From the UHGV virus genome UHGV-0057547: 64,000 nt of DNA; one strand, given 5' to 3'. The position numbers and the translations under genes are program-made. The notes beneath the pieces are model-generated. The model had not been told where the DNA came from. It was given only the letters and a program-made list of their open reading frames with translations, and searched no databases. This document shows positions 328 to 64,000 of the stretch, in pieces (positions within the stretch are counted from its first letter, which is position 1; every line of letters starts with the position of its first letter). The DNA comes from a virus.

Positions 328-3300
328 ATGGATGGTATAAAGCCACGACATTTATTATTAAATAATGCTCATAAATTAACTGCTGTTGAATGTCCAAATA
401 ATACAGAATTAATAAATATTCAGATTGATAACTGTTCTTATTTACAAAGATTGAATTTACAAGGTTGTAGTTCTTTAGGTAACTTAACATCTTCACAAGT
501 ACTTATAGTTGATGGATGTAATAATTTAAGATATTTAAATGCATATGGTACAATAATTACATCAATAAGAACTAATCAAGAAGGTGGAAACTTAGTTGAA
601 CTATATGTACCTAAAACTTTACAAACATTATCATTAAGAAATCAATATAGTTTAACAACTATAGGAATACCTAATGCTAATGTTCATGGTGATAGTAGAT
701 TATATGACCTTAGAAATAAAGCTAGTAATATAGCAACATTTTCATTAATAAATTGTCCTTTAGTTAATAGATTGACTTACAATTCATCATATAATATTAA
801 TAGTAATTTCTTTGATATACATGGGAATGAAAGAACTTCAAGTGAAATATCTTCTTTAACTTATGTTGGAAAATGGAGAAGGTTGATGGATTGGGGAAAT
901 GGATTAGCTAATGCTAGTGAGATTCATATAGAAAACAGTTGTCTTGATATTGAGGAAATGTCATTTAGAGGTAGTAGTAAATTAGAAAACTTAACATTAA
1001 GAAACTTACCTAATTTAAAGACGTTAATGATAGGAGCAAACTGTGCTGGTTATAGATGGAATACACAAAATAATAATTATGAATCAGATAGATATGATAC
1101 TTATGGTGAATTTAATTGGTCAGGATTAGTTATAAGAGATTGTCCTAATATAGAAGATTTTAGATTTCAAGAATTATTCCCATTCAATTGGAATGGTGGA
1201 TGGAATGGCAACTTAAGTTATCTTACATTTAAAGAAGGTACTAATTCTCTAAATCTTGCTGAAAAATTCCCTAATTTAAAAACATTTTTCTGTAATTTGG
1301 CGACTCAAAATATACATCAAATAATTTTACCTCAATCATTAACTTGTTTAAATACAAGTGCTTGGCAAACAAAACATGATGAAGGTTATCCACATGAAGT
1401 TAAATTAGAAAAATTTAATATAAATAGCGTTTATTTTGAAGGAGAACATACAGATGACTATGTAGGTATTGATTTAGGAAATCATTTAATGCATGATGTT
1501 AGAATAGTAGCACCTTATGCAACTGAATTAATAGGATTAAATATTAAAAATGAATGGGTTAATCCTATATTCCAAACATTTAAAGAAGATAATCATGAAA
1601 CAAGACCTTCATTAACACCTCAAGGTAAAATAGATTTATCTGAATTTAAATGGAAAAGAATATCAAACTGGTTTCAATACATTGACTTTACTAAAGGAAC
1701 TTGTGAAATAGTACAACCTACTAATTGGGATAGTTTCCTAAAAAACATTGAAAGAGCAAGTGGTATGTTCTATCGTTGCAAGAATCCTAATTTCACTTGG
1801 GAATTTGCAATGAAATTCTTTGGTAAAATGGCTGATACAAGTGATAAAAATACAATGTATAAATATGCACAATTAAAAGAACAAACTAGTTTTGAAGAAG
1901 ATGCTGTTGATATGATTTCTAATAAAGGAGCGTTTTATTATGATTATCAAGCTAAACCATTTGAAGGAACTAATTTAAAATATGTTAAATCTATACAGTT
2001 AACAGCAACAGATGGATGTTATGGCTTATTTTATGGTTGCGAAAGTATTATAAAAGTTGGAGATATAAGCATGACAGGAAATAATAACAACTGGTATGCT
2101 AATGAGAGTTTTTTCCAAGATGCAGTAAATCTTGAAGAAGTTGGAAACATTTATTCAACAAGAAATAAAGAAAATGGAACTACGACTAGTGCTCATGCAT
2201 TTTTTAGAAATTGTAAAAAATTAAGAAAAATAGGTAGAATTGATATGTCTGTATCAAATGGCAATTATATGTTTAATGAGTGTACTTCCTTAGTAGATGG
2301 AAGTATAGAACAATTACCATATACTGGAAAGATGACTAATGGTGCTTATATGTTTAGAAACACTAGATTTACAACAATTGAATTGGAAAATTTATCTAGT
2401 TTACAAAATGCTGATAATATGTTTTCTGCTAATCCTAATTTAAAAACAATTCATTTACCAAATATAGATAGAACAAGTCCTTTAAATAATTTGGCAAATA
2501 CATTTAATGGAGATAAGTCCTTAACAAAAATAACAATTGAAGGAGATACTTTACCAATTGGATTAAAAACTATGACTGGTACTTTTAATGGTTGTATTTC
2601 ATTAACTTCATTACCACCAATTCCTCAAGATTTTACATATGATATAAATATGCAATATTGTTGTTATAATTGTGATTCTTTAACTGATGATACGATTTAT
2701 AAAGTAATACCATACAGATGTACACATACTCAATACATGTATGGTTATTGTGATGGATTAATTAATCCAATAGTAGAAGTTAAATCTGATAGTGTTTATG
2801 CTAGACAAATGTTTGAATATTGTAAAAATATTAAAACATTAACAGTTAATTTTACAGGTAGATTATTAAGAACAAGTATGTATTTTGCTCAATATTGTAC
2901 AAATATGACTCAATTTAATATGAAGTTTCCCGATTCTTTATATATGCATGATTATTATGAAACTGGTGTTGCTCATTATAATATGTTACAATATTGTGAA
3001 AATTTATCTATTGTGAATTTAGACATGAGTAGTTTATCAAAGACTAATACTAGAAGTGATTTTGGTGGTATGTTTTATCAAGATAAACATATTACAGAAA
3101 TACATGGATTAGATTTAACATATTTAAAGAAAGTTGTACATCCATTAACATCTAATGGGCAAGACCACTACGATTGGCATAATGATTCTATCACATATGG
3201 TGGTTCATATGATGACTTAAGTGTGCTTGAATTAACTGGTAAACTAAATACAAGTTATAACTTTAGAAATATAACTACAATAACACATACTAAAGAAATA

Positions 3301-19271: not shown

Positions 19272-19841
19272 TTATCTACTTGATGTCGTCCCAAAGCCCC
19301 CTCTATTTTCTGTACCTAAATCATCAGTTTCATTAAATTCAATAGTTGGTGGAATTTGACATATCTCCATTTGACATATTTTGTCACCTTTTTTAATCCA
19401 CGTTCCACTTACAGTTACTTTGTGTCCATTTATTATAACTTTTTCAGTTTGTTTTGCCATAGTACATTGACAAGGATACATATAAACGTCTTCATTCCCG
19501 CAGTATGAATTATCAATTATTGCGACGTGATTGGTTTGTATTATCCCCCACGTTTTAAAAGTTGAACTTCTAGGATATAATTTAGCCATATAACCTTCAG
19601 GTAATTTTAATGAAAATCCTAGAGATACTAATGCTTGACCCATATAAGGAATAAATACATCTTCATATGCATATAAATCTATAAAGTCACCTTTTGATAT
19701 TTTTAATAATTTATTAGCACCTTCTAAATATTTTATATCTGCTTTTAAAGTTTTAGTATCTTCAGAAGTATCATCTATAATATCTTCTCCTTTTGTATCT
19801 TTTAATCCTTTAAAATATTTATTTAAATCTATATTTTCCAT
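19272..19841 (-). CDS. dut: dUTP diphosphatase (trimeric dUTPase)
   Basis: Motifs PRSS (motif 2), GIIDNSYCGE (motif 3), C-terminal RGGFGTT (motif 5). Confidence 0.8.
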   Translation of the reverse strand: MENIDLNKYFKGLKDTKGEDIIDDTSEDTKTLKADIKYLEGANKLLKISKGDFIDLYAYEDVFIPYMGQALVSLGFSLKLPEGYMAKLYPRSSTFKTWGIIQTNHVAIIDNSYCGNEDVYMYPCQCTMAKQTEKVIINGHKVTVSGTWIKKGDKICQMEICQIPPTIEFNETDDLGTENRGGFGTTSSR

Positions 19842-20077
19842 TATTCATTTTCTCCTTTTTTATTTTCTTCTTCTTTTTCAGTTTCTCTTATGATTTCATT
19901 AATTTTACCTATAATTATTTCATTCATTTTTGTTAATGCATCACTTAATTCTTCTGAATCTTCTTTAGTCATTTTTTCTTTTATATCTATTTTTTTACCA
20001 TTTATCTCTAATTCATATATTTCTAATGCTAAAGTACCATTCTCACCAATTAATAATTCACCTATTTGGTCTTTCAT
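19841..20077 (-). CDS. Hypothetical acidic protein
   Basis: 78-aa ORF overlapping the dut start. Confidence 0.35.
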   Translation of the reverse strand: MKDQIGELLIGENGTLALEIYELEINGKKIDIKEKMTKEDSEELSDALTKMNEIIIGKINEIIRETEKEEENKKGENE

Positions 20078-20099
20078 AAGTATCAGCTCCTTATATTTT

Positions 20100-20137
20100 A
20101 TTTATATTATACTATTATTTTTCTTTATTGTCAAGAG
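20100..20137 (-). promoter_or_regulatory. Consensus promoter repeat (TTGACA-N17-TATAAT)
   Basis: -10 at 20106-20111, -35 at 20129-20134. Confidence 0.55.
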
Positions 20138-20164
20138 AAATTTTAAATTTTTTCTTTTAATCAT

Positions 20165-20695
20165 CTATTTTATATTATTTATTTTTTTATATAAACAATA
20201 GGCGAGCCCGACAGCATCCATCATATCAGAATTTTTATCTTTATTATCTCTATCATTGTATTCACCTAAGTCTATAACATTCTTCCTAAGCCATTTAAAT
20301 GCCCCTTCTTTTGATTTGCCAGTACCCGTTGCTATCTTTCTCCATTGAGAAGGAGAATAGATATAAATTAAATTATATCCATTCTCAAGTAACAATGTTA
20401 TTATTCCACCTTGTAATTTAGCAAGTGTTTTACCAGTTCCTTGATGTTTTCCTATATAATTATCTTCTATTGATATGTGGGTTACATTATATGATTTGCA
20501 TAATTCAAGACAAGTATGTGCAATGTATTGTATTTTTTTATTTTCATCACTATTGAAATCTTTTGTCTTTATAGGTAATCTATCATAAGCTATAACTTCT
20601 CCTGTTTCTCCATCTAATATAGCAAGACCACTACTTTTTATACTAGCATCAATTCCTAATATTATCTTCTTTTTCTCCAAAACAAACAACTCCAT
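20165..20695 (-). CDS. RuvC-like Holliday-junction resolvase
   Basis: N-terminal ILGIDASIKSSGLAIL with catalytic Asp context, as in phage RuvC-type resolvases. Confidence 0.65.
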   Translation of the reverse strand: MELFVLEKKKIILGIDASIKSSGLAILDGETGEVIAYDRLPIKTKDFNSDENKKIQYIAHTCLELCKSYNVTHISIEDNYIGKHQGTGKTLAKLQGGIITLLLENGYNLIYIYSPSQWRKIATGTGKSKEGAFKWLRKNVIDLGEYNDRDNKDKNSDMMDAVGLAYCLYKKINNIK

Positions 20696-20707
20696 TTATA
20701 TTATGTT

Positions 20708-21355
20708 TTATTTCTTCTTTGTTTTCTTACTTTTACTTTCTTCACATTCTTTAATATGTTTATTTATTATAGCTTTTACTTCTTTAATTGCTTCATCTAA
20801 TCGACCATTACTATTTTTTACTTCACTATATACAGTATGAACTCTAAAAGGCATAAAACGTTCATAATCATCTTTTAATCTTCTATCAATTTCTGCTTCT
20901 AAGTCACCTCTAGCTAATGCTCTAGCTTTTATTTCTTCTTGTGGAGCAGTTATAAATATTGGAACTATCTTATTATTTCCTACATATGCTTTAAGTTCTT
21001 TAAAACCAATTGAATCAACTATAACTATCAAATAATTATCTTTTTCCAATTCTGCTCTTTCTATACCATATCTCCAAGTTGCATCTTTTTCTATGCCATT
21101 TTCTTCTACTTTAGTATGATATACTCTTTGTTCTACAAAATCTGTTCCTCTTTCAAAGAAATCTTTATCATTAATAAAATAATATTCTACACCATCTGTC
21201 TCACCATTTCTCATAGGTCTAGTTGTTGTGCTAATTATTGGTTTTACATTTTCCATATCTTTTAATACCTGCTTAAGTATCGTATCTTTACCAGCACCCA
21301 TATAGCCAAGTAATACAAATATCTTTTTAGCCTTTACATTTCTACTCATTAACAT
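20708..21355 (-). CDS. gmk: Guanylate kinase-like (d)NMP kinase
   Basis: P-loop GYMGAGKDT. Guanylate kinase signature STTTRPMRNGETDGVEYYF. Confidence 0.7.
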   Translation of the reverse strand: MLMSRNVKAKKIFVLLGYMGAGKDTILKQVLKDMENVKPIISTTTRPMRNGETDGVEYYFINDKDFFERGTDFVEQRVYHTKVEENGIEKDATWRYGIERAELEKDNYLIVIVDSIGFKELKAYVGNNKIVPIFITAPQEEIKARALARGDLEAEIDRRLKDDYERFMPFRVHTVYSEVKNSNGRLDEAIKEVKAIINKHIKECEESKSKKTKKK

Positions 21356-21726: not shown

Positions 21727-24700
21727 TTAATTACATTTGCTATATCCACAATTTAAACATGAATCACATCCATTAGTTTTTATTAATGATGACTCTCCAC
21801 ATTCAGGACACACATTTCCTTTAAGTTCTTCTTTTTTATCATTATTCTTATTTGATTTTTCAACAACTTTCTCTATAACCTTTTCTTCTTTTCCTATCTC
21901 TTTTAAAAATGCCTTCATTTCTTTTAATATAGCCATACCACAATAACTACCATCTGATAAATGATTTCCTTTTCCTCTTTCTCTAGTAAAACTTGGACAA
22001 GCTGATACTCCAGCAAAACTTTTTTCAATCATAGATAAATCTCCACCAATTCTAAGTATAGAGGACATTAATATAGCTATACATTGTAAATTCTTTTCAC
22101 ATCCACCACTACCACTCTTAGTTATATAGACATCTTGTATAGTGTTTTCACTAGGAGACCAACCTATAAATAATTTAAGTTTTCCACAACCAATTATTAA
22201 ATTACGTTTAACATAATAAGTATCTTCTGCTAAAGATTTCCATTGACCACGTTTTAATAATTCTTTTTCTTCGTCTTCTTTTTCATCTTTTGTTGTAAGA
22301 ACACCTTGTCTAGCACATCCATCACGATATATTGTTAATCCTTTTAATCCTTCTTTCCATGCCTCCATATACAATTCTTCAACTTCTTCTACTGTTGCTT
22401 CATTTGGTAAATTTATAGTTGAACTAATTGAAGCATCTATATGTTTTTGCCATACCCCTTGCATTTTAACTCTCATGTGAGGATTTAAAGTTTGGGCAGT
22501 TACAAAGAAATTAGGTAATTCTTCTTCCTCGTTTAAACCATGAAGTTCCATATATTCTTTTGCTATTGGAGTGTATACTTTATAATAAACATCTCCTTCT
22601 TTATGAAGTGATTCAGTTTTTCTAGTATATGATAAATTAAATATAGGTTCTATACCACCACTTACCCCTATCATTGTAGATATTGAACCAGTTGGTGCTA
22701 TTGTTAATAACTGAGAATTTCTAAGTCCATATTTCTTTACTAACTCATAAGTTTCTACACTTGCATTTTTTATTAAAAATTCAGAAGTTAATATAGAAGG
22801 TTTATATTTAGGATAATGACCTTCTTCTTTAGAAAGTAATGCACTAACTTTTATTGATTCATCTGCTAATATTTTGCCTATAGTATCACATATTTCTGTT
22901 GCTTCATCAGTATCATATTTTAATTCAAGTTTAATTAACATATCAGCTATACCCATAACACCAATTCCTATTTGTCTATAATCTCTAACGGTATCTCTTT
23001 GTATTTGCAATGGATGTAGTGGTAAACCTTGGTCTAATACATCATTCATTGCTTTTACTATTGTATGAATATCTTTCTTAAATGCACATATATCAAAAAT
23101 TTTATCATTAACATAAGCTGATAAATTTATACTTCCTAATAAACAGCTTCCACCATTTGGAAGTGGTTCTTCTGCGCAATTATGAGCCACATAACCTTCT
23201 ATTATCCCCCAATGGTTTCTAGGCTCTTTAAAATCATATACTAACTTTTTACCATTATCTTTTATATTTCTAACATAAGGAACTCTACTTTCTATTAATT
23301 TATTAAGTTTTATCTTTTTATAAGTTTGATAAAATCCTATAAATTGTGCAAATAATAATATATCATCATATTTATTTATATTTACATCATAACTTTCTCT
23401 ACATTCATATTCACCATTTTCAAATTCTACCATATGTTTTTTATTTATTGTTAAATTTGCAGTTATCCCAAAATCTTTTTCTAAATTATTTATAAGTTCT
23501 AAAGCAAATTCTTTACAAGTTGTTTTATAACTTATTCTTTTATTTGAATTAACACACCCATTAGCAGAAAAACAACCTTGTAAAAAGTTTGCTTTTTGAT
23601 TTAGATTCCATTCATTATAAGCCTTAGGCATGATTCTATTTGGTAATACTTCTTGTGAAAACTGAAGTTGTTCTAGTAAATCATTATAACCTTGTAAATA
23701 TATAGCTCTATATGATTTTGTAGTATATTCATCATTTTCAAATAAATATCTTATATCTCCATCTTTAACACCTATATTAACTTCTATTCCATTATGCCAT
23801 TCACTGTTTAATCTACTTAATTGTCCATCTCCTTGTATAAAGCCTAATTTAATAAACAATTCATCATCTTTTATTGTTTTATATATTTTAGGCATAATTT
23901 TTTTATTTTTTAAATTTTTAGCTTCACATTCCTCTCCATTGATAGTCATAAATCTATGGTCAGGAGTACATGTTATTTCTTTATTGTTTGATAGTATTAA
24001 TTTTATTGTATCCTTTTCACCATTACACCATACTTTTCCTTTTGAAACTAAACCATCATAACTATATATTAATGGTTCTGTATCACATAATTCTTTTAAA
24101 GTTTTAAATCCTTCATGTGTTAATAATTTCATATCTCCAGTAAAACAAGGATTTACACCTGCATATTCAAATTCATCATCTTCACTTAATAAATTATAAT
24201 CTTCTATTCTTGACCAATATAATATCCCAGGTTCTGCGAAGTCCCAGTTGTTTCTACATAATAATTTAAATACTTCTTTAGCTTTAACAACTTTTTCCAT
24301 TTTATCATTTTCTGCTTCAAAATGTAATACCCAATCTTCATCATTTTCTACTGCCTTCATAAAATCATCATTAACTCTTACTGATATATTTGCTTTAGTA
24401 ACTTTATTTAAATCTGTTTTTATATTTATGAAGTCTATAAGTTCGGGATGCGTACAATCTAATGATAGCATCAAAGCTCCTCTACGACCATTCTGACCAA
24501 TTGTAGATGTGACCTGAGAGAAGGTATCCATAAAACTACAAGCTCCAGTAGTTTCTTTAGAAGCATTATTTACTTTCATACCTTTAGCTCTTAGCTTAGA
24601 TATGTCGACCCCACAACCTCCTCCATAAGAAAATGTTCTAGCCAAATCACTACAAGTTTTATATATATCTTCTATACTATCATCTGTTTTAAGTACATAA

Positions 24701-24927
24701 CAATTTGAATACGTTACTTTTTTACCATGTTTTTCTAATCCTCTATTGCTTAAAATTCTTCCTCCAAACAAAAATTTCTTATCTCTAATTAATTGTTTAA
24801 GTTCTTCATTTTTATTTGATACTCTATCTAACCAATCTTCAAAACTTTCACCCTCAAATTGATATTTATTATGCCATATATCAATTCCTAATTGATTATC
24901 TTCTCCTAGCCATTCTTTTATATCCAT
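21727..24927 (-). CDS. nrdJ: Class II (B12-type) ribonucleotide reductase NrdJ-like, interrupted by an in-frame intein
   Basis: YGGGCGVDISKLR block. NPC...(intein)...CAEEPLPNGGSCLL active-site region. C-terminal Cys-rich zinc ribbon CPECG...CDSCLNCGYSKC. Start likely ATG 24927 (RBS AAGGAGAGAT); the track gives 24975. Confidence 0.8.
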   Translation of the reverse strand: MDIKEWLGEDNQLGIDIWHNKYQFEGESFEDWLDRVSNKNEELKQLIRDKKFLFGGRILSNRGLEKHGKKVTYSNCYVLKTDDSIEDIYKTCSDLARTFSYGGGCGVDISKLRAKGMKVNNASKETTGACSFMDTFSQVTSTIGQNGRRGALMLSLDCTHPELIDFINIKTDLNKVTKANISVRVNDDFMKAVENDEDWVLHFEAENDKMEKVVKAKEVFKLLCRNNWDFAEPGILYWSRIEDYNLLSEDDEFEYAGVNPCFTGDMKLLTHEGFKTLKELCDTEPLIYSYDGLVSKGKVWCNGEKDTIKLILSNNKEITCTPDHRFMTINGEECEAKNLKNKKIMPKIYKTIKDDELFIKLGFIQGDGQLSRLNSEWHNGIEVNIGVKDGDIRYLFENDEYTTKSYRAIYLQGYNDLLEQLQFSQEVLPNRIMPKAYNEWNLNQKANFLQGCFSANGCVNSNKRISYKTTCKEFALELINNLEKDFGITANLTINKKHMVEFENGEYECRESYDVNINKYDDILLFAQFIGFYQTYKKIKLNKLIESRVPYVRNIKDNGKKLVYDFKEPRNHWGIIEGYVAHNCAEEPLPNGGSCLLGSINLSAYVNDKIFDICAFKKDIHTIVKAMNDVLDQGLPLHPLQIQRDTVRDYRQIGIGVMGIADMLIKLELKYDTDEATEICDTIGKILADESIKVSALLSKEEGHYPKYKPSILTSEFLIKNASVETYELVKKYGLRNSQLLTIAPTGSISTMIGVSGGIEPIFNLSYTRKTESLHKEGDVYYKVYTPIAKEYMELHGLNEEEELPNFFVTAQTLNPHMRVKMQGVWQKHIDASISSTINLPNEATVEEVEELYMEAWKEGLKGLTIYRDGCARQGVLTTKDEKEDEEKELLKRGQWKSLAEDTYYVKRNLIIGCGKLKLFIGWSPSENTIQDVYITKSGSGGCEKNLQCIAILMSSILRIGGDLSMIEKSFAGVSACPSFTRERGKGNHLSDGSYCGMAILKEMKAFLKEIGKEEKVIEKVVEKSNKNNDKKEELKGNVCPECGESSLIKTNGCDSCLNCGYSKCN
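23179..24147 (-). mobile_element. Intein with LAGLIDADG homing endonuclease domain inside the RNR
   Basis: 323 in-frame codons begin with Cys directly after extein GVNP and end ...VAHN, followed by Cys. Two LAGLIDADG-like motifs (LGFIQGDGQL, FLQGCFSANGCV). Placed at the conserved NPC(G/A)E active-site motif. Confidence 0.75.
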
Positions 24928-24984
24928 ATTATCTCTCCTTTTCAAATCTAATATAACCACTATATATTGTAGCATATAAAAAAT

Positions 24985-25122
24985 AAGACACTATATATTG
25001 TATTTTATAACCCCTAACCGTGAACTACCAACAAGCTAAAACTTATTTGCTTCTTAGGTAAAGTTACTATTGCAACTAATTTACTAAGCTCAAAAGGTCG
25101 TTCCAACCTCTATTTTTTTTAT
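24985..25122 (-). ncRNA. Putative omega-RNA (reRNA) / right end of the IS605-family element
   Basis: Locally GC-rich, structure-prone 130-nt segment directly 3' of the tnpB stop, the position where TnpB guide RNAs are encoded. Confidence 0.5.
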
Positions 25123-26223
25123 TTATTTATTTAATATTCTTAGTCCTTCATATAATATATTAATACTAGCGTTAATATCTCTATCATGATGTTTGCCACA
25201 ATATGGACAATCAAATTCTCTTATAGATAATTCTTTTTTACCAGTATTATTTCCACAATTACTACATATTTGACTAGAAGGATAATATTTGTCTATGATA
25301 ACGACAGTTCTACCATACCAATTAGCCTTATATTCTAATTGTCTTCTAAATTCATACCATGATACTTCGCTTATTGCTTTGGCTAACTTATGATTTTGTA
25401 AAAGATTTTTTACTTGTAAATCTTCTAAACATATTACTTGGTTTTCGTTTATAAGTTCAGAAGATAATTTATGTAAAAAATCTTTTCTTTGATTAGTTAT
25501 TTTTTCATAAGCTTTAGCTAAGTCAACTCTAGCCTTATTTTTATTCTTACTTCCTTTTTTCTTCCTAGATAAATCTCTTTGTAGTTTTTTTATTTTATTT
25601 TCTTGTTTTCTTAGCCATTTAGGATTAGAATATTTAACTCCATCACTAATTATAGCAAAATCAGTTAATCCTAAATCTATACCAACCGCAAATTCATTTT
25701 TAGGCAATTCTTTTATCTCTTGTTCTACTAATATAGATATATAATATTTACCACTAGGATTTTTAGATATCGTCGCCGATTTAATCTTTCCATCTTTAGG
25801 AATTTGTCTATGTTGTTTAATTCTAACTAGAGTTTTCAATTTAGGTAATTTAATATGTTTATCATCAACTATTCTAAGGATTTGTGTTTTTTGATTATTA
25901 TTTGTAGTATAACTATAATAATTATTTTTTTTAGATTTAAATTTAGGAAAACCTACATTTCTATCTCTAAAAAAATTTTTATATGCTTTATCTAAATCCA
26001 TTTGTGTATTTGCTAATGCTTGACTATCCACTTCTTTTAACCATGGAAATTCTTTTTTGTATTGAGCAGGTCTATTATACAACATTTTATTGTTCTTTTT
26101 ATAATATTCAATTTTATCATTTAACATTTTATTATAAATAAATCTTACACTACCAAAGCATTTAGAAAAATATATTTCTTGTTCTTTATTTGGATATAAT
26201 CTAAATTTATATGCTTTTAACAT
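25123..26223 (-). CDS. tnpB: TnpB (IS200/IS605-family OrfB, RuvC-like RNA-guided nuclease)
   Basis: 366 aa. RuvC-I ([11 protein letters not shown]), RuvC-II Glu region, C-terminal zinc finger CSNCG...CPYCG, then Ruv[15 protein letters not shown]. No tnpA nearby. Confidence 0.85.
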
Positions 26224-26439
26224 TTTTTCACCTCCTATCTTTAATTATTTATATATTCTTGCAATTGTTTTTCTATACTTACTATGAAATTTTACAATAT
26301 TATTCCTTTCATCTCGTTAGCTAAAATCAATTAATATTTATAAAATTTCATAAGTTGATATAATGTTAAAGTTTGTTGTTTTTCTAATGAAGCTAATATA
26401 TTATTCATAATTCATCTCTCCTTTATTAAGATTATTTTA

Positions 26440-26611: not shown

Positions 26612-27598
26612 TTATTTTGCTGAATTATCTGCGTTGTGTAAAGCTAATAATCTAGCATAGTTTAAATACCCAATTTTTCTAACCAATTTTTCAGATGAAT
26701 ATCCATTTTTAAATATCATATGATTATTTATTAACCAAGCTATATCCATAATATCTCTATCACAAAATTTAGTATATTTTATTAATATATTTATCACATC
26801 ATAAGCTGACATATTTTCATGATTGTAATAATGACAGTATCTATTTTCCTTATCTTCTGTTTTTGCTATTGGTTTACTTATATCATGTAACATAGAAGCT
26901 ATTAATAAATTTTTATCAAGTTTATCAACCTCTTTTATTTTTTTATAACAAAAATACATATGTTTACTCAAGGATAAATTATGCCATTTACTATCTTGTG
27001 ACATTTCTACACAACTACTTAGTCCTAATTCAATTAATAAATCAATGTATTCTTTATAATTATTACATTCAATAAATCTTTCTTTATCCATACCTAAGTT
27101 ATTTTTTCTTCTGTTATTAATATATAATTTTCTTCCAATATCATAATCTATAATAACTTCATCGAATCCTTCACATTTATGTGGTATTTCTATATTCTTA
27201 TACATTCTTTCTATAACTTCATCAGGAACTCGTTTGCTCCTTGTATCATTATCTATAATACAATCTATTAAATTTTTATATTTAAACAAACAAATTGCTT
27301 TAGAATAATATTTTTTCATTTCTTTTAATAAAGCTCTTCTACGTTTACTAGATATATTTGTAGCTTCATATATAGTTATATGACCATTAGATAAACTTCT
27401 TTTCGTTCTTTCCTTCATTATATCAAATATTTCTTTATTTTTACTTTGGTCTTTTATATCATTTAATAACTCTTTTCTAATTTCATCCGATGATATAACT
27501 TCTATATTTTTATCCTTATTTTCTTCTATATAATCTTTAACCCAAGATGTTTTTCCACTTCCAGGTATCCCAACTGTAACAATTAAAATTCCTTTCAT
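26612..27598 (-). CDS. P-loop polynucleotide-kinase-like domain fused to an HD phosphohydrolase domain (RNA/DNA end-repair candidate)
   Basis: Walker A GIPGSGKTS (AAA_33-like kinase) at the N-terminus. C-terminal H..D motif LHDISKP...HYYNHENM. Confidence 0.55.
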   Translation of the reverse strand: MKGILIVTVGIPGSGKTSWVKDYIEENKDKNIEVISSDEIRKELLNDIKDQSKNKEIFDIMKERTKRSLSNGHITIYEATNISSKRRRALLKEMKKYYSKAICLFKYKNLIDCIIDNDTRSKRVPDEVIERMYKNIEIPHKCEGFDEVIIDYDIGRKLYINNRRKNNLGMDKERFIECNNYKEYIDLLIELGLSSCVEMSQDSKWHNLSLSKHMYFCYKKIKEVDKLDKNLLIASMLHDISKPIAKTEDKENRYCHYYNHENMSAYDVINILIKYTKFCDRDIMDIAWLINNHMIFKNGYSSEKLVRKIGYLNYARLLALHNADNSAK

Positions 27599-27636
27599 TT
27601 ACATCACTCCTTAAAAATAATAGTTTGTGTACTTTA

Positions 27637-27672
27637 GTTATATTATACACAAACTATTATTGAAAGTCAATT
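27637..27672 (-). promoter_or_regulatory. Consensus promoter repeat
   Basis: -10 at 27642-27647, -35 at 27665-27670, spacer 17. Confidence 0.55.
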
Positions 27673-27686
27673 ATTTTTTATTATTT

Positions 27687-28619
27687 TTATTTATTATCTT
27701 CATCATCTTCATATTTACTTAATATTTCACCTAATGTTTTAGATGATTCATCTTCAACTTCATCCTCTTTATCTTCTACTTCTTCATCTTCATCATCTTC
27801 TTTATGACATTTGCAATTTCCGTCACATTCACAATTTCCACCACATTTGCATTCTTTCTTATCTTCCATTCCTTCATCTCCTTCCTCATCTTCATCATCA
27901 TTTAATCCTAAAATTTCAGATAAACCTGTGTGTAATAAAGTTATTGCTAATTCTCCTTCTTCCATATCCATTAATTGAGCAAAGGTTTGGACTGCTAAAG
28001 CAGTTGCTTGATTAAATTTTTCATCTAATTCATCCCAATCAGGTTCACAACCTTCATATCCATAATTTATTATTCCTAACTCTATTGCTTCCTCATAGCC
28101 ATAGTATATACATTTTAATCTACTTGCTTCAATTTGTTCTTCAGGTATATTTGTTTGTTCTCTTATCATCTTATCATATAAATCATCCATATAATCACTA
28201 TGGTCTAAATCACTTCTAACTTCTTCTCTATATCCCATATAATGAGAACGACTACTATGATTCATACCAGCAAATAATTTATCTGCTGTCCTTTTATTAA
28301 ATGCTATATATATTATGAATGCCATAGACATACAAGTTATTCCATTCGCTATTAAAGGTATCCCTAATTCTTGCATCTCTTTTATTCTTGATATAATTAA
28401 GTTACCATCATATATATTTCCTCCGGGAGAGTTTATAGTAACTGTTATCATAGGAAATTTTTGTTGCATAATTTCTTTTATATAAGAAGTCTCCATTTTA
28501 TATGATGTAAATTCATCTATTATATCTTGTGTTTCTTCAATAAACTTATTAGATACATTATCATCAATTATTCCAGTTATAAATAATTCAGTTCTTAATC
28601 TATTTTTTTTATCTACCAT
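27687..28619 (-). CDS. ClpP-family serine protease with Cys-rich / acidic C-terminal extension
   Basis: ClpP core INSPGGNIYDG...GITCMSMAF. The tail carries KECKCGGNCECDGNCKCHKEDDEDEE (metallothionein-like) and a poly-acidic end. Confidence 0.6.
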   Translation of the reverse strand: MVDKKNRLRTELFITGIIDDNVSNKFIEETQDIIDEFTSYKMETSYIKEIMQQKFPMITVTINSPGGNIYDGNLIISRIKEMQELGIPLIANGITCMSMAFIIYIAFNKRTADKLFAGMNHSSRSHYMGYREEVRSDLDHSDYMDDLYDKMIREQTNIPEEQIEASRLKCIYYGYEEAIELGIINYGYEGCEPDWDELDEKFNQATALAVQTFAQLMDMEEGELAITLLHTGLSEILGLNDDEDEEGDEGMEDKKECKCGGNCECDGNCKCHKEDDEDEEVEDKEDEVEDESSKTLGEILSKYEDDEDNK

Positions 28620-35031: not shown

Positions 35032-36630
35032 TTATTTATTTAATTTTCTATATTCATATTCTTCTTTATTTAATTCTTCTATTTCTTCTTCATTAAGTAA
35101 ATGATATTCATCACACCATATTTCAAACTCTCCATTTTGTACCCACTTTGTTTTAATTATTGTATTTCCGTCTTTATCTGTTGTTTCAACTTCTTTTTTT
35201 TCTTTTTTTGCCTTTTGGAACATATGATATACATTAATTACACTAAATGCTTTAAACGGTTGTGCTTCATAAAATCCTTCACCAACTTTTACCTCCATAG
35301 TTTTTCCAGTGCTTATATTAAAAATCCATGCTTTTTTATTCTTAAATTTAGTTACAACGTCAATAACAATACAAGTTGATGAATCATAATCTTCAAAATA
35401 ATAATTACATTCTCCAGTCATTTCAAGATTAATTTTAACTTTATCTATTGATGGCATTTCGCTATCTTCTATGTTCGACATTAATTCATTACATAATTCT
35501 AATGCTTTTTCTACTTTATATTGTTTATATTTATCTTCTTTACTCTTTTCAGTTGCATATTTTTCTATTATTTCTTTAGGGTATGGTAAATTAATTTTAT
35601 TAAATGATACTTCACCTTTTTTACTTTTTATTTTTTTACTTATTATATTTTCATATAACTTTATTATATCTAATAATTTTTGAGATTTACCAAATTCCTT
35701 GAAGAAATCTATTGATATCAGTATATTGAGTTGTCTTGAGTTTATAGATGTTTTATCATTTAAATCAATAAGTAAATCCATAAAACTATCATATTTATTA
35801 TCTTTTAACATATATAATTCTTGTGATACTTGTTCGTTCATATATTTTATACTAGCCATACCTTTATATATAGAGTTACTTTCTTTATCCATAAAATATT
35901 CAGCTTTAGAATATCTAAATTTAGGAGGTAATAATTTTATATCAAAATAGCTTAATTCTTTTATTAGTCTATTTGTTCTAGTTGAATCATCGGAATAAAT
36001 AGATAGGGCAACTGTATAATACTCAAGAGGATAATGTGATTTTAAAAATGCACCATATAGACTATCATAAGCATAAGAAAGTGAATGTGAAGCATTGAAT
36101 GAATATTTTGAAGCATCATTAACTACTTGCCATGTTTCTTCAAAACCATCTATTGAACCAACTTTATCTATCCAACCTTTTTTTAATTTTTCTTCTAGTT
36201 CTATTAATTCTTTTTCTTTAAATTTTTTCTTTGATATTTTTTTTATAATTCCATATGTTTCAGGTTCAGGAATACCTAACCATATTAAATATTTCATAAT
36301 AGATTCTTGATACATTAAATAATGATAACTATCTTCTAATAAATCATCTAATTCTTTTACGCCTGTTGTATATGGTTTCCTTTCTATAAAATTATCTAAT
36401 AAAGAAGCAAATCCAGGTCTAATAGATGCAACAAAAGCACTCATTTCAGCTACACTAGAAATTTTATATCTTGATGCTAAATTAGTTGCAAAATCTGAAT
36501 CAGATTGATTTATTGTGCAAGTTATTTTATCTTCATATATTTTAAATGTTTTTTCATCTAACATTTTTTCTAATTCTTTAATAGTTGGTATTTTAATATT
36601 AGCTAATTCACAAGTTTTTCTTATTAAAGT
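35032..36630 (-). CDS. dnaE: DNA polymerase III alpha (DnaE-like), exon 2 (fingers and C-terminal domains)
   Basis: IRPGF...FIERKPYTTG...YQESIMKYLIWLGIPEPETYG block matches the DnaE fingers. The frame stays open upstream of the annotated ATG (36564) to about 36630. Confidence 0.65.
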   Translation of the reverse strand, partial: TLIRKTCELANIKIPTIKELEKMLDEKTFKIYEDKITCTINQSDSDFATNLASRYKISSVAEMSAFVASIRPGFASLLDNFIERKPYTTGVKELDDLLEDSYHYLMYQESIMKYLIWLGIPEPETYGIIKKISKKKFKEKELIELEEKLKKGWIDKVGSIDGFEETWQVVNDASKYSFNASHSLSYAYDSLYGAFLKSHYPLEYYTVALSIYSDDSTRTNRLIKELSYFDIKLLPPKFRYSKAEYFMDKESNSIYKGMASIKYMNEQVSQELYMLKDNKYDSFMDLLIDLNDKTSINSRQLNILISIDFFKEFGKSQKLLDIIKLYENIISKKIKSKKGEVSFNKINLPYPKEIIEKYATEKSKEDKYKQYKVEKALELCNELMSNIEDSEMPSIDKVKINLEMTGECNYYFEDYDSSTCIVIDVVTKFKNKKAWIFNISTGKTMEVKVGEGFYEAQPFKAFSVINVYHMFQKAKKEKKEVETTDKDGNTIIKTKWVQNGEFEIWCDEYHLLNEEEIEELNKEEYEYRKLNK

Positions 36631-36985
36631 CCAAACGGTAACTGCAAGATACGTTAATACCGTTCCTTTCGGAATACTTTAACACCCATTTAAGGGTCGG
36701 ACTAGACTATACCTTTATCTTCGACATTACTCGTTAAGATATGCCTATTATAGTCGTTGAAGGTTTCCCATCTTAAAGGGACTTCCCTGCTGATTATCCA
36801 TTCATTCACCCTTAGCACTCTCACAAGGCTTTTATTTCAGCTTAGGCAATCCTTATAATTTTTTCTGCTTTCGCAACCATCAAGTTTAATGTTACCATTT
36901 ACTTTGTGGTTTATAAGGCTTTAGGAACTCCCAGCAATTTAAGGCATCATAATCTACATAATTTCTTATATAGACGACTATTAAA
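36631..36985 (-). ncRNA. Group I self-splicing intron (ORF-less) in dnaE
   Basis: Structured, GC-richer 355-420-nt ORF-free segment between the two DnaE halves. P/Q/R/S core elements occur in the right order on the minus strand (AAAUUGCUGGGAG; AAUCAGCAGGGAAG; UUCAACGACUAUAA; AAGGUAUAGUCUAGUCCG, giving P7 GACUA/UAGUC). Candidate IGS GUCGU pairs with exon end AUGAU. Exact 3' splice site unresolved. Confidence 0.75.
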
Positions 36986-38668
36986 TTAATCATTCTTTAA
37001 ATATTTATAAACATCACAATTATAACCATCTAAATTACAACATATTCCTTCTTTAGTTTTTATTAAACCAATTTCTTCTGAAACATTTTTATCATATAGT
37101 AACATTGAACAAGGTGATTCTGATATACTTTCCACTACTCCCTTAAATACTTTTGAATCTTTTATTATTTTTCCCCAATATTCATCGTTTTCATATTGCT
37201 CTAAATTTTTAGCTATTTCATCGTATTTACTAACATGCATATCATTTGCTTTACACCATAATCTAAAAGCAGATGAATCTTGTAAAGGTTTATATGATAA
37301 AATCCAAGCACAATTTTCTTCGCCTAATAAATCTTTAGTTGCTTGTATAAAAACTGAACGGTCTTCTGTATTTAAATCAACATCGGGTAATGAACGAGTA
37401 CCTAATATACGTTCTATACTCATAAATCTAGTTGGATACAATGGAACTGGTGCTGATAATCTATCTATTTCTGTTAAGCCTAATAATTTGTTTATAAGAA
37501 AACTTACAGCAGAACCTCTTCCTGTCTTAGTTAATAAGCCATTATATTTATTTATTGCTCTTTGACATATTTTATAATCTAATATAAAATAATCTTCCAT
37601 ATGTGTTTTCTCAATTATATTAAATTCATATCTTATAGCTTCTAAATATTCATTCCATCTCTCTTTAGGTATTGTATCTCTTATTTCCATCCATCTTTTA
37701 TTAATTATATCTTTTAATTCTTTATTTGGATTATTTGATATTGATGGCATTTTAATTTCTTTATCTAATATAATATTTTCACATTCATCAAAAATTAAAG
37801 TATTATTAATTGCATCTTTTATTTGCTCTTCATTTAATATATTTTGTTTATTATATCGTTCTATTATAGTTTCTACATCAGGATAATCTAATATAAAGTT
37901 TGTTTCTTCTTTATATATGATGCCTTTTGCTTTAAGAAATAATTCTCTATAAATATAATCTTGTGGATTAATATAATGTGAATCGTTACCATGAATAATA
38001 TTAATATTATATTTTTCACTTAAGCATAGAATTTTTTTATTAAGATTTTTTTGTATATCTTCATTATGGTTTTGAACTTCTAAATAAAAATTATTACCAA
38101 AATATTCTTTCATTTTTATAATCCAATCGTCTAAGCCTTCATCATTTCTTAAACGACCAGCAACACAAGCAGTTGTTATAATTGTATTATTTGGATTAAT
38201 ACTAAATAATAATTCATCATCTATTCTATTTTTATAATATACCCCATCTATATTGCTATAGGATAATATTCTATTTAAGTCTCTATATCCATCTTTATTT
38301 TTTGCTATTATAACTAAGTGATAATTAGAGTTATCTTTTTCTTTTCTATCTTTAACATAATATGCTTCTGCACCAACTACCATTTTAATACCTTTATATG
38401 ATTTATCGCATGTATCTTTATATTTACATTTTTCACAATTATGTTTTGTATATTCATTATTTTCTTGAGTAAGTTTTACACATACTTCACTACATAAAGT
38501 ATTTGCTTCATATACATTACCTTGATAACCATGTTCAGTAGTAAAATATATTGCATCTTTACCATCTAATTCAATTGCTCTAACTATATATTCTATTGGT
38601 TTAGTAACCACATCTAAACTTTTAATATTGCTATATATTTTATGTGAATGATAATTATTACATCTCAT
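36986..38668 (-). CDS. dnaE: DNA polymerase III alpha (DnaE-like), exon 1 (PHP and palm domains)
   Basis: PHP start NNYHSHKIYS. GRGSAVSFLINKLLGLTEIDRL. Catalytic LPDVDL (PDxD). Ends ...YLKND at the position of the third catalytic Asp. Confidence 0.7.
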   Translation of the reverse strand: MRCNNYHSHKIYSNIKSLDVVTKPIEYIVRAIELDGKDAIYFTTEHGYQGNVYEANTLCSEVCVKLTQENNEYTKHNCEKCKYKDTCDKSYKGIKMVVGAEAYYVKDRKEKDNSNYHLVIIAKNKDGYRDLNRILSYSNIDGVYYKNRIDDELLFSINPNNTIITTACVAGRLRNDEGLDDWIIKMKEYFGNNFYLEVQNHNEDIQKNLNKKILCLSEKYNINIIHGNDSHYINPQDYIYRELFLKAKGIIYKEETNFILDYPDVETIIERYNKQNILNEEQIKDAINNTLIFDECENIILDKEIKMPSISNNPNKELKDIINKRWMEIRDTIPKERWNEYLEAIRYEFNIIEKTHMEDYFILDYKICQRAINKYNGLLTKTGRGSAVSFLINKLLGLTEIDRLSAPVPLYPTRFMSIERILGTRSLPDVDLNTEDRSVFIQATKDLLGEENCAWILSYKPLQDSSAFRLWCKANDMHVSKYDEIAKNLEQYENDEYWGKIIKDSKVFKGVVESISESPCSMLLYDKNVSEEIGLIKTKEGICCNLDGYNCDVYKYLKND

Positions 38669-49481: not shown

Positions 49482-49585
49482 AATAATTCCTCCTTATTAA
49501 CAATAATATGAAAATACTAAACTATCATTTTCCGTTTCAATATTTATTCTTAAATTTCCCTATTCAACGTGTTCTTTTTCACTTT

Positions 49586-49650
49586 ATATAAGCTACTCAA
49601 GTTTTTATAACACTCCAAGGGCGTAAATTCGGATTTGAACATCCCTACAT
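49586..49650 (-). promoter_or_regulatory. Conserved structured 5'-leader element, copy A
   Basis: Core ACTCAAGTTT.TAT.A.ACTCC.AGGGCGTAAATTCGGA..TGAAC shared with 63010..63075. Lies between the promoter and the gene start. Confidence 0.45.
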
Positions 49651-62942: not shown

Positions 62943-63009
62943 ACAATAACGTTTCAGTGCTTGTTACAATTTCAGAACAAGCTTCCCTATTCATCGTATC
63001 CTCTTTCCT

Positions 63010-63075
63010 TTTTACAAAGTACTCAAGTTTGTATGATACTCCCAGGGCGTAAATTCGGAACTGAACTTTCCTATT
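63010..63075 (-). promoter_or_regulatory. Conserved structured 5'-leader element, copy B
   Basis: Same core as 49586..49650; the hairpin stem differs by compensatory changes (UACAAA/UUUGUA vs UUAUAA/UUAUAA). Confidence 0.45.
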
Positions 63076-63139: not shown

Positions 63140-64000
63140 TTATTCAACATTTGTATCGTCTATTCCTTCCTTATCAAATCTTATATATTCTCTGCCTTTC
63201 CAGGTCGCAAACCTAAATCCATATTCACCTTGTTTATTTGTGCTTATCTCAAAATAGCTTATAGTTATTACTTTACCTATTAATTCATCTTTATGTTCCC
63301 AATAATATTTTCTTTCACTATCATTAAATCCTGAACCAACATAATTAGTATAAATTTTATCGTTATATTTAAATTGAACTTCAATTTTACCTAAAGTGCC
63401 AACTAATCTTCCTTCTCCTTCTATTATATCTGTTACTAATACATCTCCATCTTGAAACTTTTTAACCTTCATTATTGTTTTAGGTCGTTTACCAAATTCA
63501 TATTTACCATTTAAATCATTCAACATTAAACCTTCTAATTGTTGACTTACAACTTCATTTAACTTACTATATATCTCATCAATATCTTTAGTAATACCAA
63601 ATTTAGGAACAAGTCTTATAAACTCATTTCCCTTTCCAATTTTTTCTTCCATAAGTTTTAATCTTTCTGTATATGTCATGTTGCATTTACCCTTGTGATA
63701 ATCTTCTATTGGTGTCATATCAAACACAACAAATTCTAAACCTTCCTTATTATCTGATTTACTATTTACAATAGTTGTTGTTAATCTAAAGTTTTCATCG
63801 GAAGGTATATTGTCATAATTAATTCTGATAAGTTCACCATCTATGAAATAACCATCCAATTTCAATTCTTCTAATGCTTTATTTATTTGATTTAACCCTT
63901 CTACTACTTTACCTTGTCTTGACTTATGAAGTATTCTATTGTTTTCAATCATAGCACTATTTCTAACTCCATCAAGTTTTAAACTCATAGATACTTCATT
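63140..64000 (-). CDS. ATP-dependent DNA ligase (nucleotidyltransferase superfamily), 5'-partial at the window edge
   Basis: Motif I KLDGVR (lysine adenylation site). Downstream EGLMLNDLNGKYEFGKR and KVKK (motifs IV and V). The frame is open to the window end. Confidence 0.6.
   Translation of the reverse strand, partial: NEVSMSLKLDGVRNSAMIENNRILHKSRQGKVVEGLNQINKALEELKLDGYFIDGELIRINYDNIPSDENFRLTTTIVNSKSDNKEGLEFVVFDMTPIEDYHKGKCNMTYTERLKLMEEKIGKGNEFIRLVPKFGITKDIDEIYSKLNEVVSQQLEGLMLNDLNGKYEFGKRPKTIMKVKKFQDGDVLVTDIIEGEGRLVGTLGKIEVQFKYNDKIYTNYVGSGFNDSERKYYWEHKDELIGKVITISYFEISTNKQGEYGFRFATWKGREYIRFDKEGIDDTNVE

Follow-up and report, generated by a model that had tools for sequence, protein, structure and literature searches.

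A predicted class 1 intein with a LAGLIDADG-type domain directly before the active-site cysteine of a phage class II ribonucleotide reductase

In class I and class II ribonucleotide reductases, contiguous inteins are found most frequently at the site NP|C, directly N-terminal to the thiyl-radical cysteine (PMC2677866). We analyzed an insert at this site in the nrdJ gene of the virus genome UHGV-0057547, using a stretch of 64,000 nucleotides that is called the window below. The insert is very probably a genuine class 1 intein with a nested LAGLIDADG-type homing-endonuclease domain, located directly before the thiyl-radical cysteine of a phage NrdJ, a class II (B12-dependent) enzyme. Inteins at the NP|C site of reductases have long been established, and the window intein adds a member to them and leaves the basic picture unchanged.

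The RIR1/NrdA/NrdJ allelic family, which includes the archaeal Pyrococcus-type inteins, has the same insertion point, NP|C, as the window intein. In NF006207, an NCBIfam model for B12 reductases of the Pyrococcus type that contain inteins, the second intein (model positions 934-1241) aligned with the window intein, and the extein resumed at 1241. The window intein differs from these relatives in its host, a phage of ~200 kb and low G+C content related to Clostridium and Clostridioides phages. Outside its own cluster, no family member was closer than 81-94%. The Nodularia phages vB_NspS-kac65v151 (MK605242) and vB_NpeS-2AV2 (KU230356), in which the gene is annotated as 'intein-containing RnR', carry an allelic intein that is 44-46% identical over its full length. 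These inteins share with that of the window the NP|C junction, the terminal residues C1...HN/C+1, the motif pair GDG/ANG, and a tnpB gene directly upstream of the reductase. However, the Nodularia reductase is a monomeric-type class II enzyme (exteins ~28-37% identical over short stretches), and its intein is 336 amino acids long with an extra loop before block G.

Among solved structures, PI-PfuI (1DQ3), PI-SceI, and the TliVMA intein have the same architecture as the window intein, with a HINT domain that is interrupted by a LAGLIDADG domain of two motifs (Foldseek probability 1.0, E 1e-11 to 1e-16). PI-PfuI likewise comes from a reductase, and it was the sole solved intein with a LAGLIDADG domain in a PDB sequence search with the family profile (E=6e-5). 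The three are only 11-17% identical to the window intein; they are 360-454 amino acids long with extra accessory or DNA-recognition domains, and their block E has Asp/Glu where the family of the window intein has Asn. The split intein NrdJ-1, known from a metagenomic 'fractured gene', interrupts the same enzyme class and the same active-site loop, but it is inserted one residue more C-terminally (NPC|SEI, +1 Ser), is encoded in two separate genes along with a free-standing endonuclease, and lacks a LAGLIDADG domain. Group I introns and inteins are known to find refuge in the reductase genes of Firmicutes phages, as described for SPbeta bnrdE/bnrdF, Brochothrix phage A9, and Twort (PMC3653736). 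These mosaics are mostly class Ib genes, whereas the nrdJ of the window has the intein alone and its relatives carry four or five interruptions and the intein.

The intein and its host reductase

The longest minus-strand reading frame of nrdJ extends over 21727..24975 and encodes 1082 amino acids from the first ATG. A second in-frame ATG is located at 24927. The ribosome-binding site AAAGGAGAG lies upstream of this second ATG and the N-termini of the homologues (MEIKEW/MDIKEW) match it, so 24927 is the likely translational start. The precursor (21727..24927, minus strand) therefore comprises 1066 amino acids, not 1082, with a predicted mass of 121.3 kDa, and this 1066-aa form is present on 18 public contigs.

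The insert is 969 bp long, in frame, and exactly 323 codons. It occupies 23179..24147 on the minus strand, as defined by the exact alignment gap in intein-less homologues, and encodes 323 amino acids (37.7 kDa) from Cys1 to His322-Asn323. The junctions in the precursor read ...EFEYAGVNP|CFTGDMKLLTHEGF...WGIIEGYVAHN|CAEEPLPNGGSC..., with the insert opening as CFTGDMKLL. The codons of Cys1, Asn323, and the +1 Cys are at 24145..24147, 23179..23181, and 23176..23178, respectively. The N-extein of 260 amino acids (24148..24927, minus strand) was assigned from the reading frame and the alignment of homologues, and the C-extein of 483 amino acids and a stop codon (21727..23178, minus strand), whose first residue is the +1 Cys, from the alignment with 1XJE. 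A sequence-only reading of this DNA had proposed a 323-codon insert with Cys after GVNP and a terminal GYVAHN followed by Cys, and its coordinates were exact. At 24% G+C, ~9% of random codons are stops, and arithmetic from this composition gives a chance of ~1e-13 for 323 open codons; therefore, the insert is not a random open frame. The G+C content was 24.0% for the intein, 29% for the exteins, and 25.5% for the window, and composition does not discriminate between them.

We removed the insert in silico and compared the spliced extein with known reductases. It scored 496.9 bits with TIGR02504 (NrdJ_Z, adenosylcobalamin-dependent NrdJ; cut-off 399.95). The nrdJ product also matched Ribonuc_red_lgC and TSCPD of Pfam and has a C-terminal Cys4 zinc ribbon. 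Its best solved relative was NrdJ of Thermotoga maritima (1XJE, E=2.4e-67). In this alignment (NPCAEEPLPNGGSC against NPC322GEIGLSDYEAC333), the +1 Cys that follows the intein was placed on Cys322, which we take to be the thiyl-radical cysteine, and the counterparts of C134, N320, C322, E324, and C333 were all kept in the exteins. The insert thus lies in the catalytic NPC(G/A)E motif, as the sequence-only reading had it. Both the equivalog model and the catalytic residues point to a class II NrdJ as the host protein, with a predicted dependence on cobalamin.

The insert alone matched the Pfam model Intein_splicing (PF14890) with 38.3 bits (cut-off 35.8); the margin was narrow in a scan of the whole precursor, which scored 35.1 bits. 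TIGR01445, which describes the N-terminal region of inteins, gave 38.6 bits (cut-off 24.5). All residues of class 1 splicing are present, namely Cys1, Thr61, His64, Asp305, His312, His322-Asn323, and Cys+1. In the family alignments, C1, T61, and H64 were invariant or nearly so, the TH being missing in a few representatives, and V303, D305, F306, W313, G314, H322, and N323 were invariant. The HN|C junction was shared by the great majority of the relatives. The N-terminal HINT lobe (residues 1-95; 23863..24147, minus strand) contains block A with Cys1 and block B with T61-P-D-H64 (23956..23967); it was delimited by the TIGR01445 match at residues 1-68, family conservation, and profile alignments with the mini-inteins DnaE, DnaB, and DnaX. 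The C-terminal splicing lobe (residues 289-323; 23179..23283, minus strand) contains block F, VYDFKEPRNHW, and block G, GYVAHN, and was placed by the family alignment and by matches to the C-terminal strands of mini-inteins.

We modelled the insert with AlphaFold2 from 15 sequences and obtained, at high confidence, a mean predicted local distance difference test score (pLDDT) of 91.1 and a predicted template modelling score (pTM) of 0.86. The top Foldseek matches of this model in the PDB were the TliVMA intein (7QSU, E=9e-17), PI-PfuI (1DQ3), and PI-SceI. Among the lower matches, the mini-inteins DnaB, DnaE, RecA, and gp41-1 were superimposed on the splicing lobes with a root mean square deviation of 2.2-3.0 Å over ~90-96 columns. 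When the PDB was searched with the single intein sequence, only marginal matches (E>=0.05) were obtained, and the family profile was needed. The insertion, blocks A, B, F, and G, the profiles, and the modelled fold all accord with a class 1 HINT intein, and splicing is predicted. In annotation, nrdJ is best described as an intein-containing gene whose mature product has 743 amino acids; 'ribonucleotide reductase alpha subunit' with a length of 1066 or 1082 amino acids is not correct.

Empty sites, transfer, and the family of the intein

A comparison with other class II reductases had been suggested as a check of the insertion point. The reductase of the Clostridioides phage LIBA6276, the closest annotated relative (63% identity), has a contiguous GVNP|CAEEPLP, and its alignment gap corresponded to exactly the 323 residues. 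The intein domain was missing in 112 of the 120 listed best homologues of the spliced extein. The top two of them, P0035 and P0036, are intein-less proteins of 742 amino acids with identities of 98.7% and 98.4% to the spliced extein. They are encoded on the metagenomic contigs L013, L012, and L011, of which L011 (199,990 bp) is syntenic with the window. The extein DNA of these contigs was 96.8-97.0% identical to that of the window, and the empty junction reads AATCC(C/T)|TGCGCAGAA, with nothing gained or lost. In L011, the empty site is ...GAATATGCAGGTGTTAATCCC|TGCGCAGAAGAACCTCTTCCAAAT....

The intein-bearing allele is commoner: clustering at 90% identity grouped 113 sequences, on contigs of up to 204,693 bp, whereas only a handful of alleles were empty. 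Since nearly identical alleles have precise empty sites, the intein is polymorphic for presence and absence within one phage lineage, as judged from these contigs. The near-identical siblings that lack it also point to a recent movement. The window is therefore a clean natural case of a phage intein at the polymorphic stage, in which bearing and precisely empty alleles occur in ~200-kb genomes that are 97% identical at nrdJ, and the window phage and the empty-site phages are a ready donor and recipient pair for measuring intein homing between phages.

Transfer was also evident between more distant reductases. P0149 has an intein 93.8% identical to that of the window, and its N- and C-exteins are 72.7% and 64.4% identical. 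In P0146, the intein is 85.4% identical and the exteins are 71.5% and 65.8% identical. On contig L004, the intein DNA is 81.5% identical to that of the window, versus 62-69% across four extein segments; the synonymous divergence (dS) was 0.78 for the intein and 1.06-1.33 for the exteins, and the nonsynonymous divergence (dN) was 0.13 and 0.28-0.45, respectively. Because an intein of 94% identity sits in a reductase whose exteins are only 64-73% identical, these comparisons argue for horizontal movement of the intein. The Nodularia phages, with a related intein at the NP|C junction of a very different reductase, add to this discordance.

Between the window and L004, dN/dS was 0.16 for the endonuclease domain and 0.18 and 0.11 for the splicing lobes; the similar values indicate the same purifying selection on the endonuclease domain. 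P0016, a natural mini-intein relative of 132 amino acids, lacks residues ~90-290. The missing segment therefore delimits the endonuclease domain, and P0016 represents the stage of endonuclease loss expected in the homing cycle.

An exhaustive HMMER search for the intein family gave 1271 cluster representatives at E<=0.001 and 147 at E<=1e-30. The NP|C junction was unambiguous in ~100 of the best 144 representatives examined. By these data, the NP|C inteins constitute a large allelic family, in which the window intein is placed by junction and homology.

Other elements were found at or near the same site. P0115, a metagenomic protein of 977 amino acids with a reductase ~70% identical to that of the window, has an unrelated intein of 235 amino acids with an HNH domain at the identical NP|C site (GVNP|CLVGDT...VVHN|CAEEPLP). 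The inteins of P0222, P0243, P0245, and P0256 are contiguous members of the window family located at the NrdJ-1 position, one codon downstream (NPC|C...HN|SEI, +1 Ser), which suggests a one-codon shift of the site within the family. In the Clostridioides phage ES-S-0107-01 (CP067347, contig L003), nrdJ is intein-less and is split 6 nt downstream of the site (GVNPCA|EEPLP) by 657 bp (L003 3888..4544). This interruption contains an open reading frame (ORF) of 78 amino acids with a NUMOD-like N-terminus, and had no Rfam match even at E<=1. It is a probable group I intron, judging from the exon end ...GCT|, the insert end ...G, and the 5' similarity to the interruption at the same place in L005.

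In intein-bearing metagenomic relatives, a further interruption lies 2-7 codons (6-21 nt) past the intein, and in L008 it is a group I intron by Rfam (74.6 bits, 3064..3296). The nrdJ genes of L004 (6562..11824), L005 (5296..11361), and L008 (16..5051) have four or five non-coding interruptions in addition to the intein. Their positions recur after window residues ~103, ~149, ~236, ~586-590, ~655, ~745, and ~942. Some of the interruptions in these relatives hold LAGLIDADG or HNH ORFs, and three in L008 are Rfam group I introns. In the nrdJ of the window itself, only the intein was found, with no intron or free-standing endonuclease in the gene. Comparison of these genes shows the NPC(A/G)E codons as a common hotspot for at least three kinds of predicted element: the LAGLIDADG intein, an unrelated HNH intein, and group I introns 6-21 nt away.

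We propose the following mechanism, in which the splicing steps are drawn from the conserved residues and the homing step from the evolutionary pattern. The 121-kDa precursor would be translated in a catalytically incompetent form, with its NPCAE active-site loop split by the intein. Because the intein splits this loop and uses the radical cysteine as the +1 nucleophile, the enzyme would become active only after splicing. Cys1 would undergo an N-to-S acyl shift aided by Thr61 and His64 of block B, and the thioester would be passed to the +1 Cys, the future radical cysteine. Cyclisation of Asn323, assisted by His322, would free the 37.7-kDa intein, and an S-to-N shift would join the 83.7-kDa reductase through a native NP-C peptide bond. 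During co-infection, the endonuclease domain would recognise and break the uninterrupted sequence ...GGTGT(A/T)AATCC(C/T)|TGCGCAGAAGAACC... in an intein-less genome, and recombinational repair off the intein-bearing copy would convert the empty allele.

Asn196 of the LAGLIDADG domain and alternative explanations

The LAGLIDADG-type endonuclease domain extends over intein residues ~96-288 (23284..23862, minus strand), as placed by Pfam LAGLIDADG_3, the profile alignment with PI-PfuI, and the limits taken from P0016. Both strings quoted as LAGLIDADG motifs in the sequence-only reading were found. LGFIQGDGQL of block C is at residues 101-110 (23818..23847, minus strand; Asp107 codon at 23827..23829), and FLQGCFSANGCV of block E is at residues 188-199 (23551..23586, minus strand; Asn196 codon at 23560..23562). 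LAGLIDADG_3 (PF14528) matched the insert with 36.2 bits (cut-off 22.5). The motifs lie on the model helices H96-107 and H182-196, and the LAGLIDADG part of the model matched PI-PfuI, PI-SceI, and WhiA in Foldseek. Profile match and model accord with the duplicated alpha-beta-beta-alpha-beta-beta-alpha fold and its two LAGLIDADG helices at the domain interface. In the profile alignment, D107 fell on the Asp of the GDG of PI-PfuI and N196 on the Glu of its AEG.

Several points weigh against an endonuclease that is active in the usual way. A catalytic acidic residue is expected at the end of both motifs, and the first motif has it (...GFIQGD107G) while the second does not (...FSAN196G). When this Asp is changed to Asn in I-CreI or PI-SceI, at least one strand is reportedly no longer cut. 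In characterised LAGLIDADG enzymes, the acidic residue that closes each motif binds the catalytic metals (PMC8966425; PMC3017599), and in the PhoVMA intein the loss of catalytic residues goes with an inactive endonuclease domain (PMC8966425). The bearing allele also seems near fixation in the phage lineage, a stage at which endonuclease decay is expected to begin. Finally, between the window and the empty alleles, no clear co-conversion tract was seen around the site and no wider pattern. Three silent differences within the presumed recognition site, at -6, 0, and +15 of the insertion point, were found between the window (24148..24170 and 23156..23178) and L011, L012, and L013, versus ~0.7 expected at 3% divergence; they could reflect co-conversion or drift of the target site, and are too few to judge. 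Since the second motif lacks the acidic residue, we call the domain LAGLIDADG-type by fold and sequence only, and canonical two-site catalysis is not claimed.

All 29 close relatives have the Asn of block E, as do 138 of the 141 family representatives, down to ~30% identity, and the Asp of block C was kept in 126 of 131. Asn196 is thus, on the family alignment, not the product of decay in a single lineage. Because the Asn is conserved, dN/dS is low, and the signs of transfer are clear, the data indicate that the endonuclease domain works with Asn196. It may cut both strands through an unusual ligation of metal, nick a single strand, or bind DNA and rely on other nucleases. The earlier description as an 'active or once-active homing endonuclease' is to be kept with a caveat: motifs, fold, purifying selection, and transfer speak for it, but Asn196 replaces the Asp/Glu expected at the catalytic position. 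We infer endonuclease activity from evolutionary behavior, and not from an intact canonical active site.

A speculative and rather improbable extension is that the whole NP|C reductase intein family has a naturally asymmetric centre, with Asp in motif 1 and a strictly conserved Asn in motif 2, which nicks one specific strand or ligates metal in a non-canonical way and still homes efficiently among phages. Against a non-canonical enzyme, PI-PfuII, an archaeal reductase intein that probably belongs to the NP|C allelic family from the NF006207 alignment, is reportedly an active endonuclease. To our knowledge, no natural nicking LAGLIDADG homing endonuclease has been documented, whereas the HNH enzymes include homing endonucleases that nick naturally (PMC3017599). 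The Asn found throughout the family may be relevant to the way in which these enzymes cleave DNA and to nickase scaffolds of natural origin.

It is possible, although somewhat unlikely in our estimate, that the intein splices and that its endonuclease is not a canonical double-strand cutter, but a nickase of one strand with the Asp107 site only, or a DNA-binding remnant. In that case, the intein would spread by nick-stimulated recombination, by ordinary recombination during co-infection, or with the help of endonucleases from neighboring introns that act in trans and cut the same hotspot. The family-wide Asn opposite the catalytic Glu of PI-PfuI, next to a well-kept Asp in block C, fits this explanation. 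Each LAGLIDADG helix contributes one catalytic residue, monomers cut the two strands at separate sites, and engineered nickases still stimulate recombination (PMC3017599). The group I introns located 6-21 nt downstream in relatives, some with HNH or LAGLIDADG ORFs close by, could cut near the site. However, the strict retention of Asn across 30-54% identity and the dN/dS of 0.16 favor a function under selection over a remnant, and an intron or free-standing endonuclease able to act in trans is absent from the window's own nrdJ. We therefore retain the class 1 intein with a nested homing-endonuclease domain as the preferred explanation.

The remaining explanations concern the role or nature of the insert itself. 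The intein might be a conditional switch, for example a redox-sensitive one with a disulphide trap between Cys1 and the +1 Cys, which delays activation of the reductase and is kept for the benefit of the host or phage. Both junction nucleophiles are indeed Cys, the split active-site loop would make the precursor inactive, and conditional splicing is documented in the literature for inteins of replication and repair proteins. We nevertheless consider a switch unlikely, as no specific regulatory sign was seen in the sequence, the phage functions without the intein in the 97%-identical siblings with empty sites, and the patchy distribution and horizontal transfer suit a selfish element. Some phage reductase genes are known to degenerate (PMC3653736), and the insert could in principle be a dead, non-splicing intein that makes this nrdJ copy a protein-level pseudogene. 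This is very improbable, because C1, T61, H64, D305, H322, N323, and C+1 are intact and conserved, the intein has a dN/dS of 0.16, no catalytic residue is missing from the exteins, which share 97-99% identity with intein-less alleles, and the allele occurs on 18 contigs and in the cluster of 113 sequences. A native accessory domain of this reductase lineage, the finding in homologues that the sequence-only reading had set as decisive against itself, is hardly credible and was rejected: the listed homologues mostly lack the 323 residues, the 97%-identical siblings have precise empty sites, and the intein and LAGLIDADG models match the insert in agreement with its fold.

Neighboring elements and genes

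A TnpB-only element of the IS200/605 type (25020..26323, minus strand) is located ~92 bp upstream of the nrdJ start, and was unmatched in BLAST with the intergenic region of L011. Its tnpB coding sequence (25123..26223, minus strand) encodes the Pfam domains OrfB_IS605, Cas12f1-like_TNB, and HTH_OrfB_IS605. Between the tnpB stop at 25123 and the first in-frame ATG of nrdJ there are 147 bp, close to the 150 bp given in the sequence-only reading; the distance to the likely start is 195 bp. This element is also polymorphic for presence and absence, as ~17 bp in L011 (9893..9911) correspond to ~1.3 kb in the window, and by this comparison it is an insertion independent of the intein. Folding of the RNA between tnpB and nrdJ gave no structure signal (z = 0.0). 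The Nodularia tnpB (L002 133..1317), which immediately precedes the reductase gene in the same orientation, encodes a protein 32% identical to the window TnpB. It raised the idea of a functional link between TnpB and the intein; we set this aside and take the arrangement as a presumed coincidence, given that the TnpB element and the intein are separate insertions in the window and that the two TnpBs share so little sequence.

The gene for the DNA polymerase III alpha subunit (DnaE; 35032..38668, minus strand) is split into 36986..38668, with the PHP and NTPase domains, and 35032..36564, with the finger and HHH domains. The group I intron predicted in this gene from the letters alone was recovered at 36684..36998 on the minus strand (RF00028, 61.9 bits, E=2.6e-15). 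An Rfam scan of the whole window and L003 at the gathering thresholds gave no group I intron, and the DnaE intron was seen only when the 600-bp gap was scanned alone with permissive filters.

The neighborhood of nrdJ (19272..21355 and 26612..28619) is a module of nucleotide metabolism and replication that is syntenic with L011. Besides nrdJ, it comprises genes for dUTPase-like, RuvC-like, and guanylate-kinase-like proteins, a KTI12/AAA_33-like kinase with a fused HD-like region, and a ClpP-like protease whose tail is acidic and rich in Cys. The source is probably a phage of jumbo size with distant kinship to Clostridium phage c-st and large phages of Clostridioides. Elsewhere in the window, two RAGATH-18 RNA motifs were found on the minus strand at 49556..49621 and 62983..63047, with scores of 69.4 and 62.9 bits (gathering threshold 44.9). 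The second of them is located just downstream of the ORF of an ATP-dependent DNA ligase (63140..63988).

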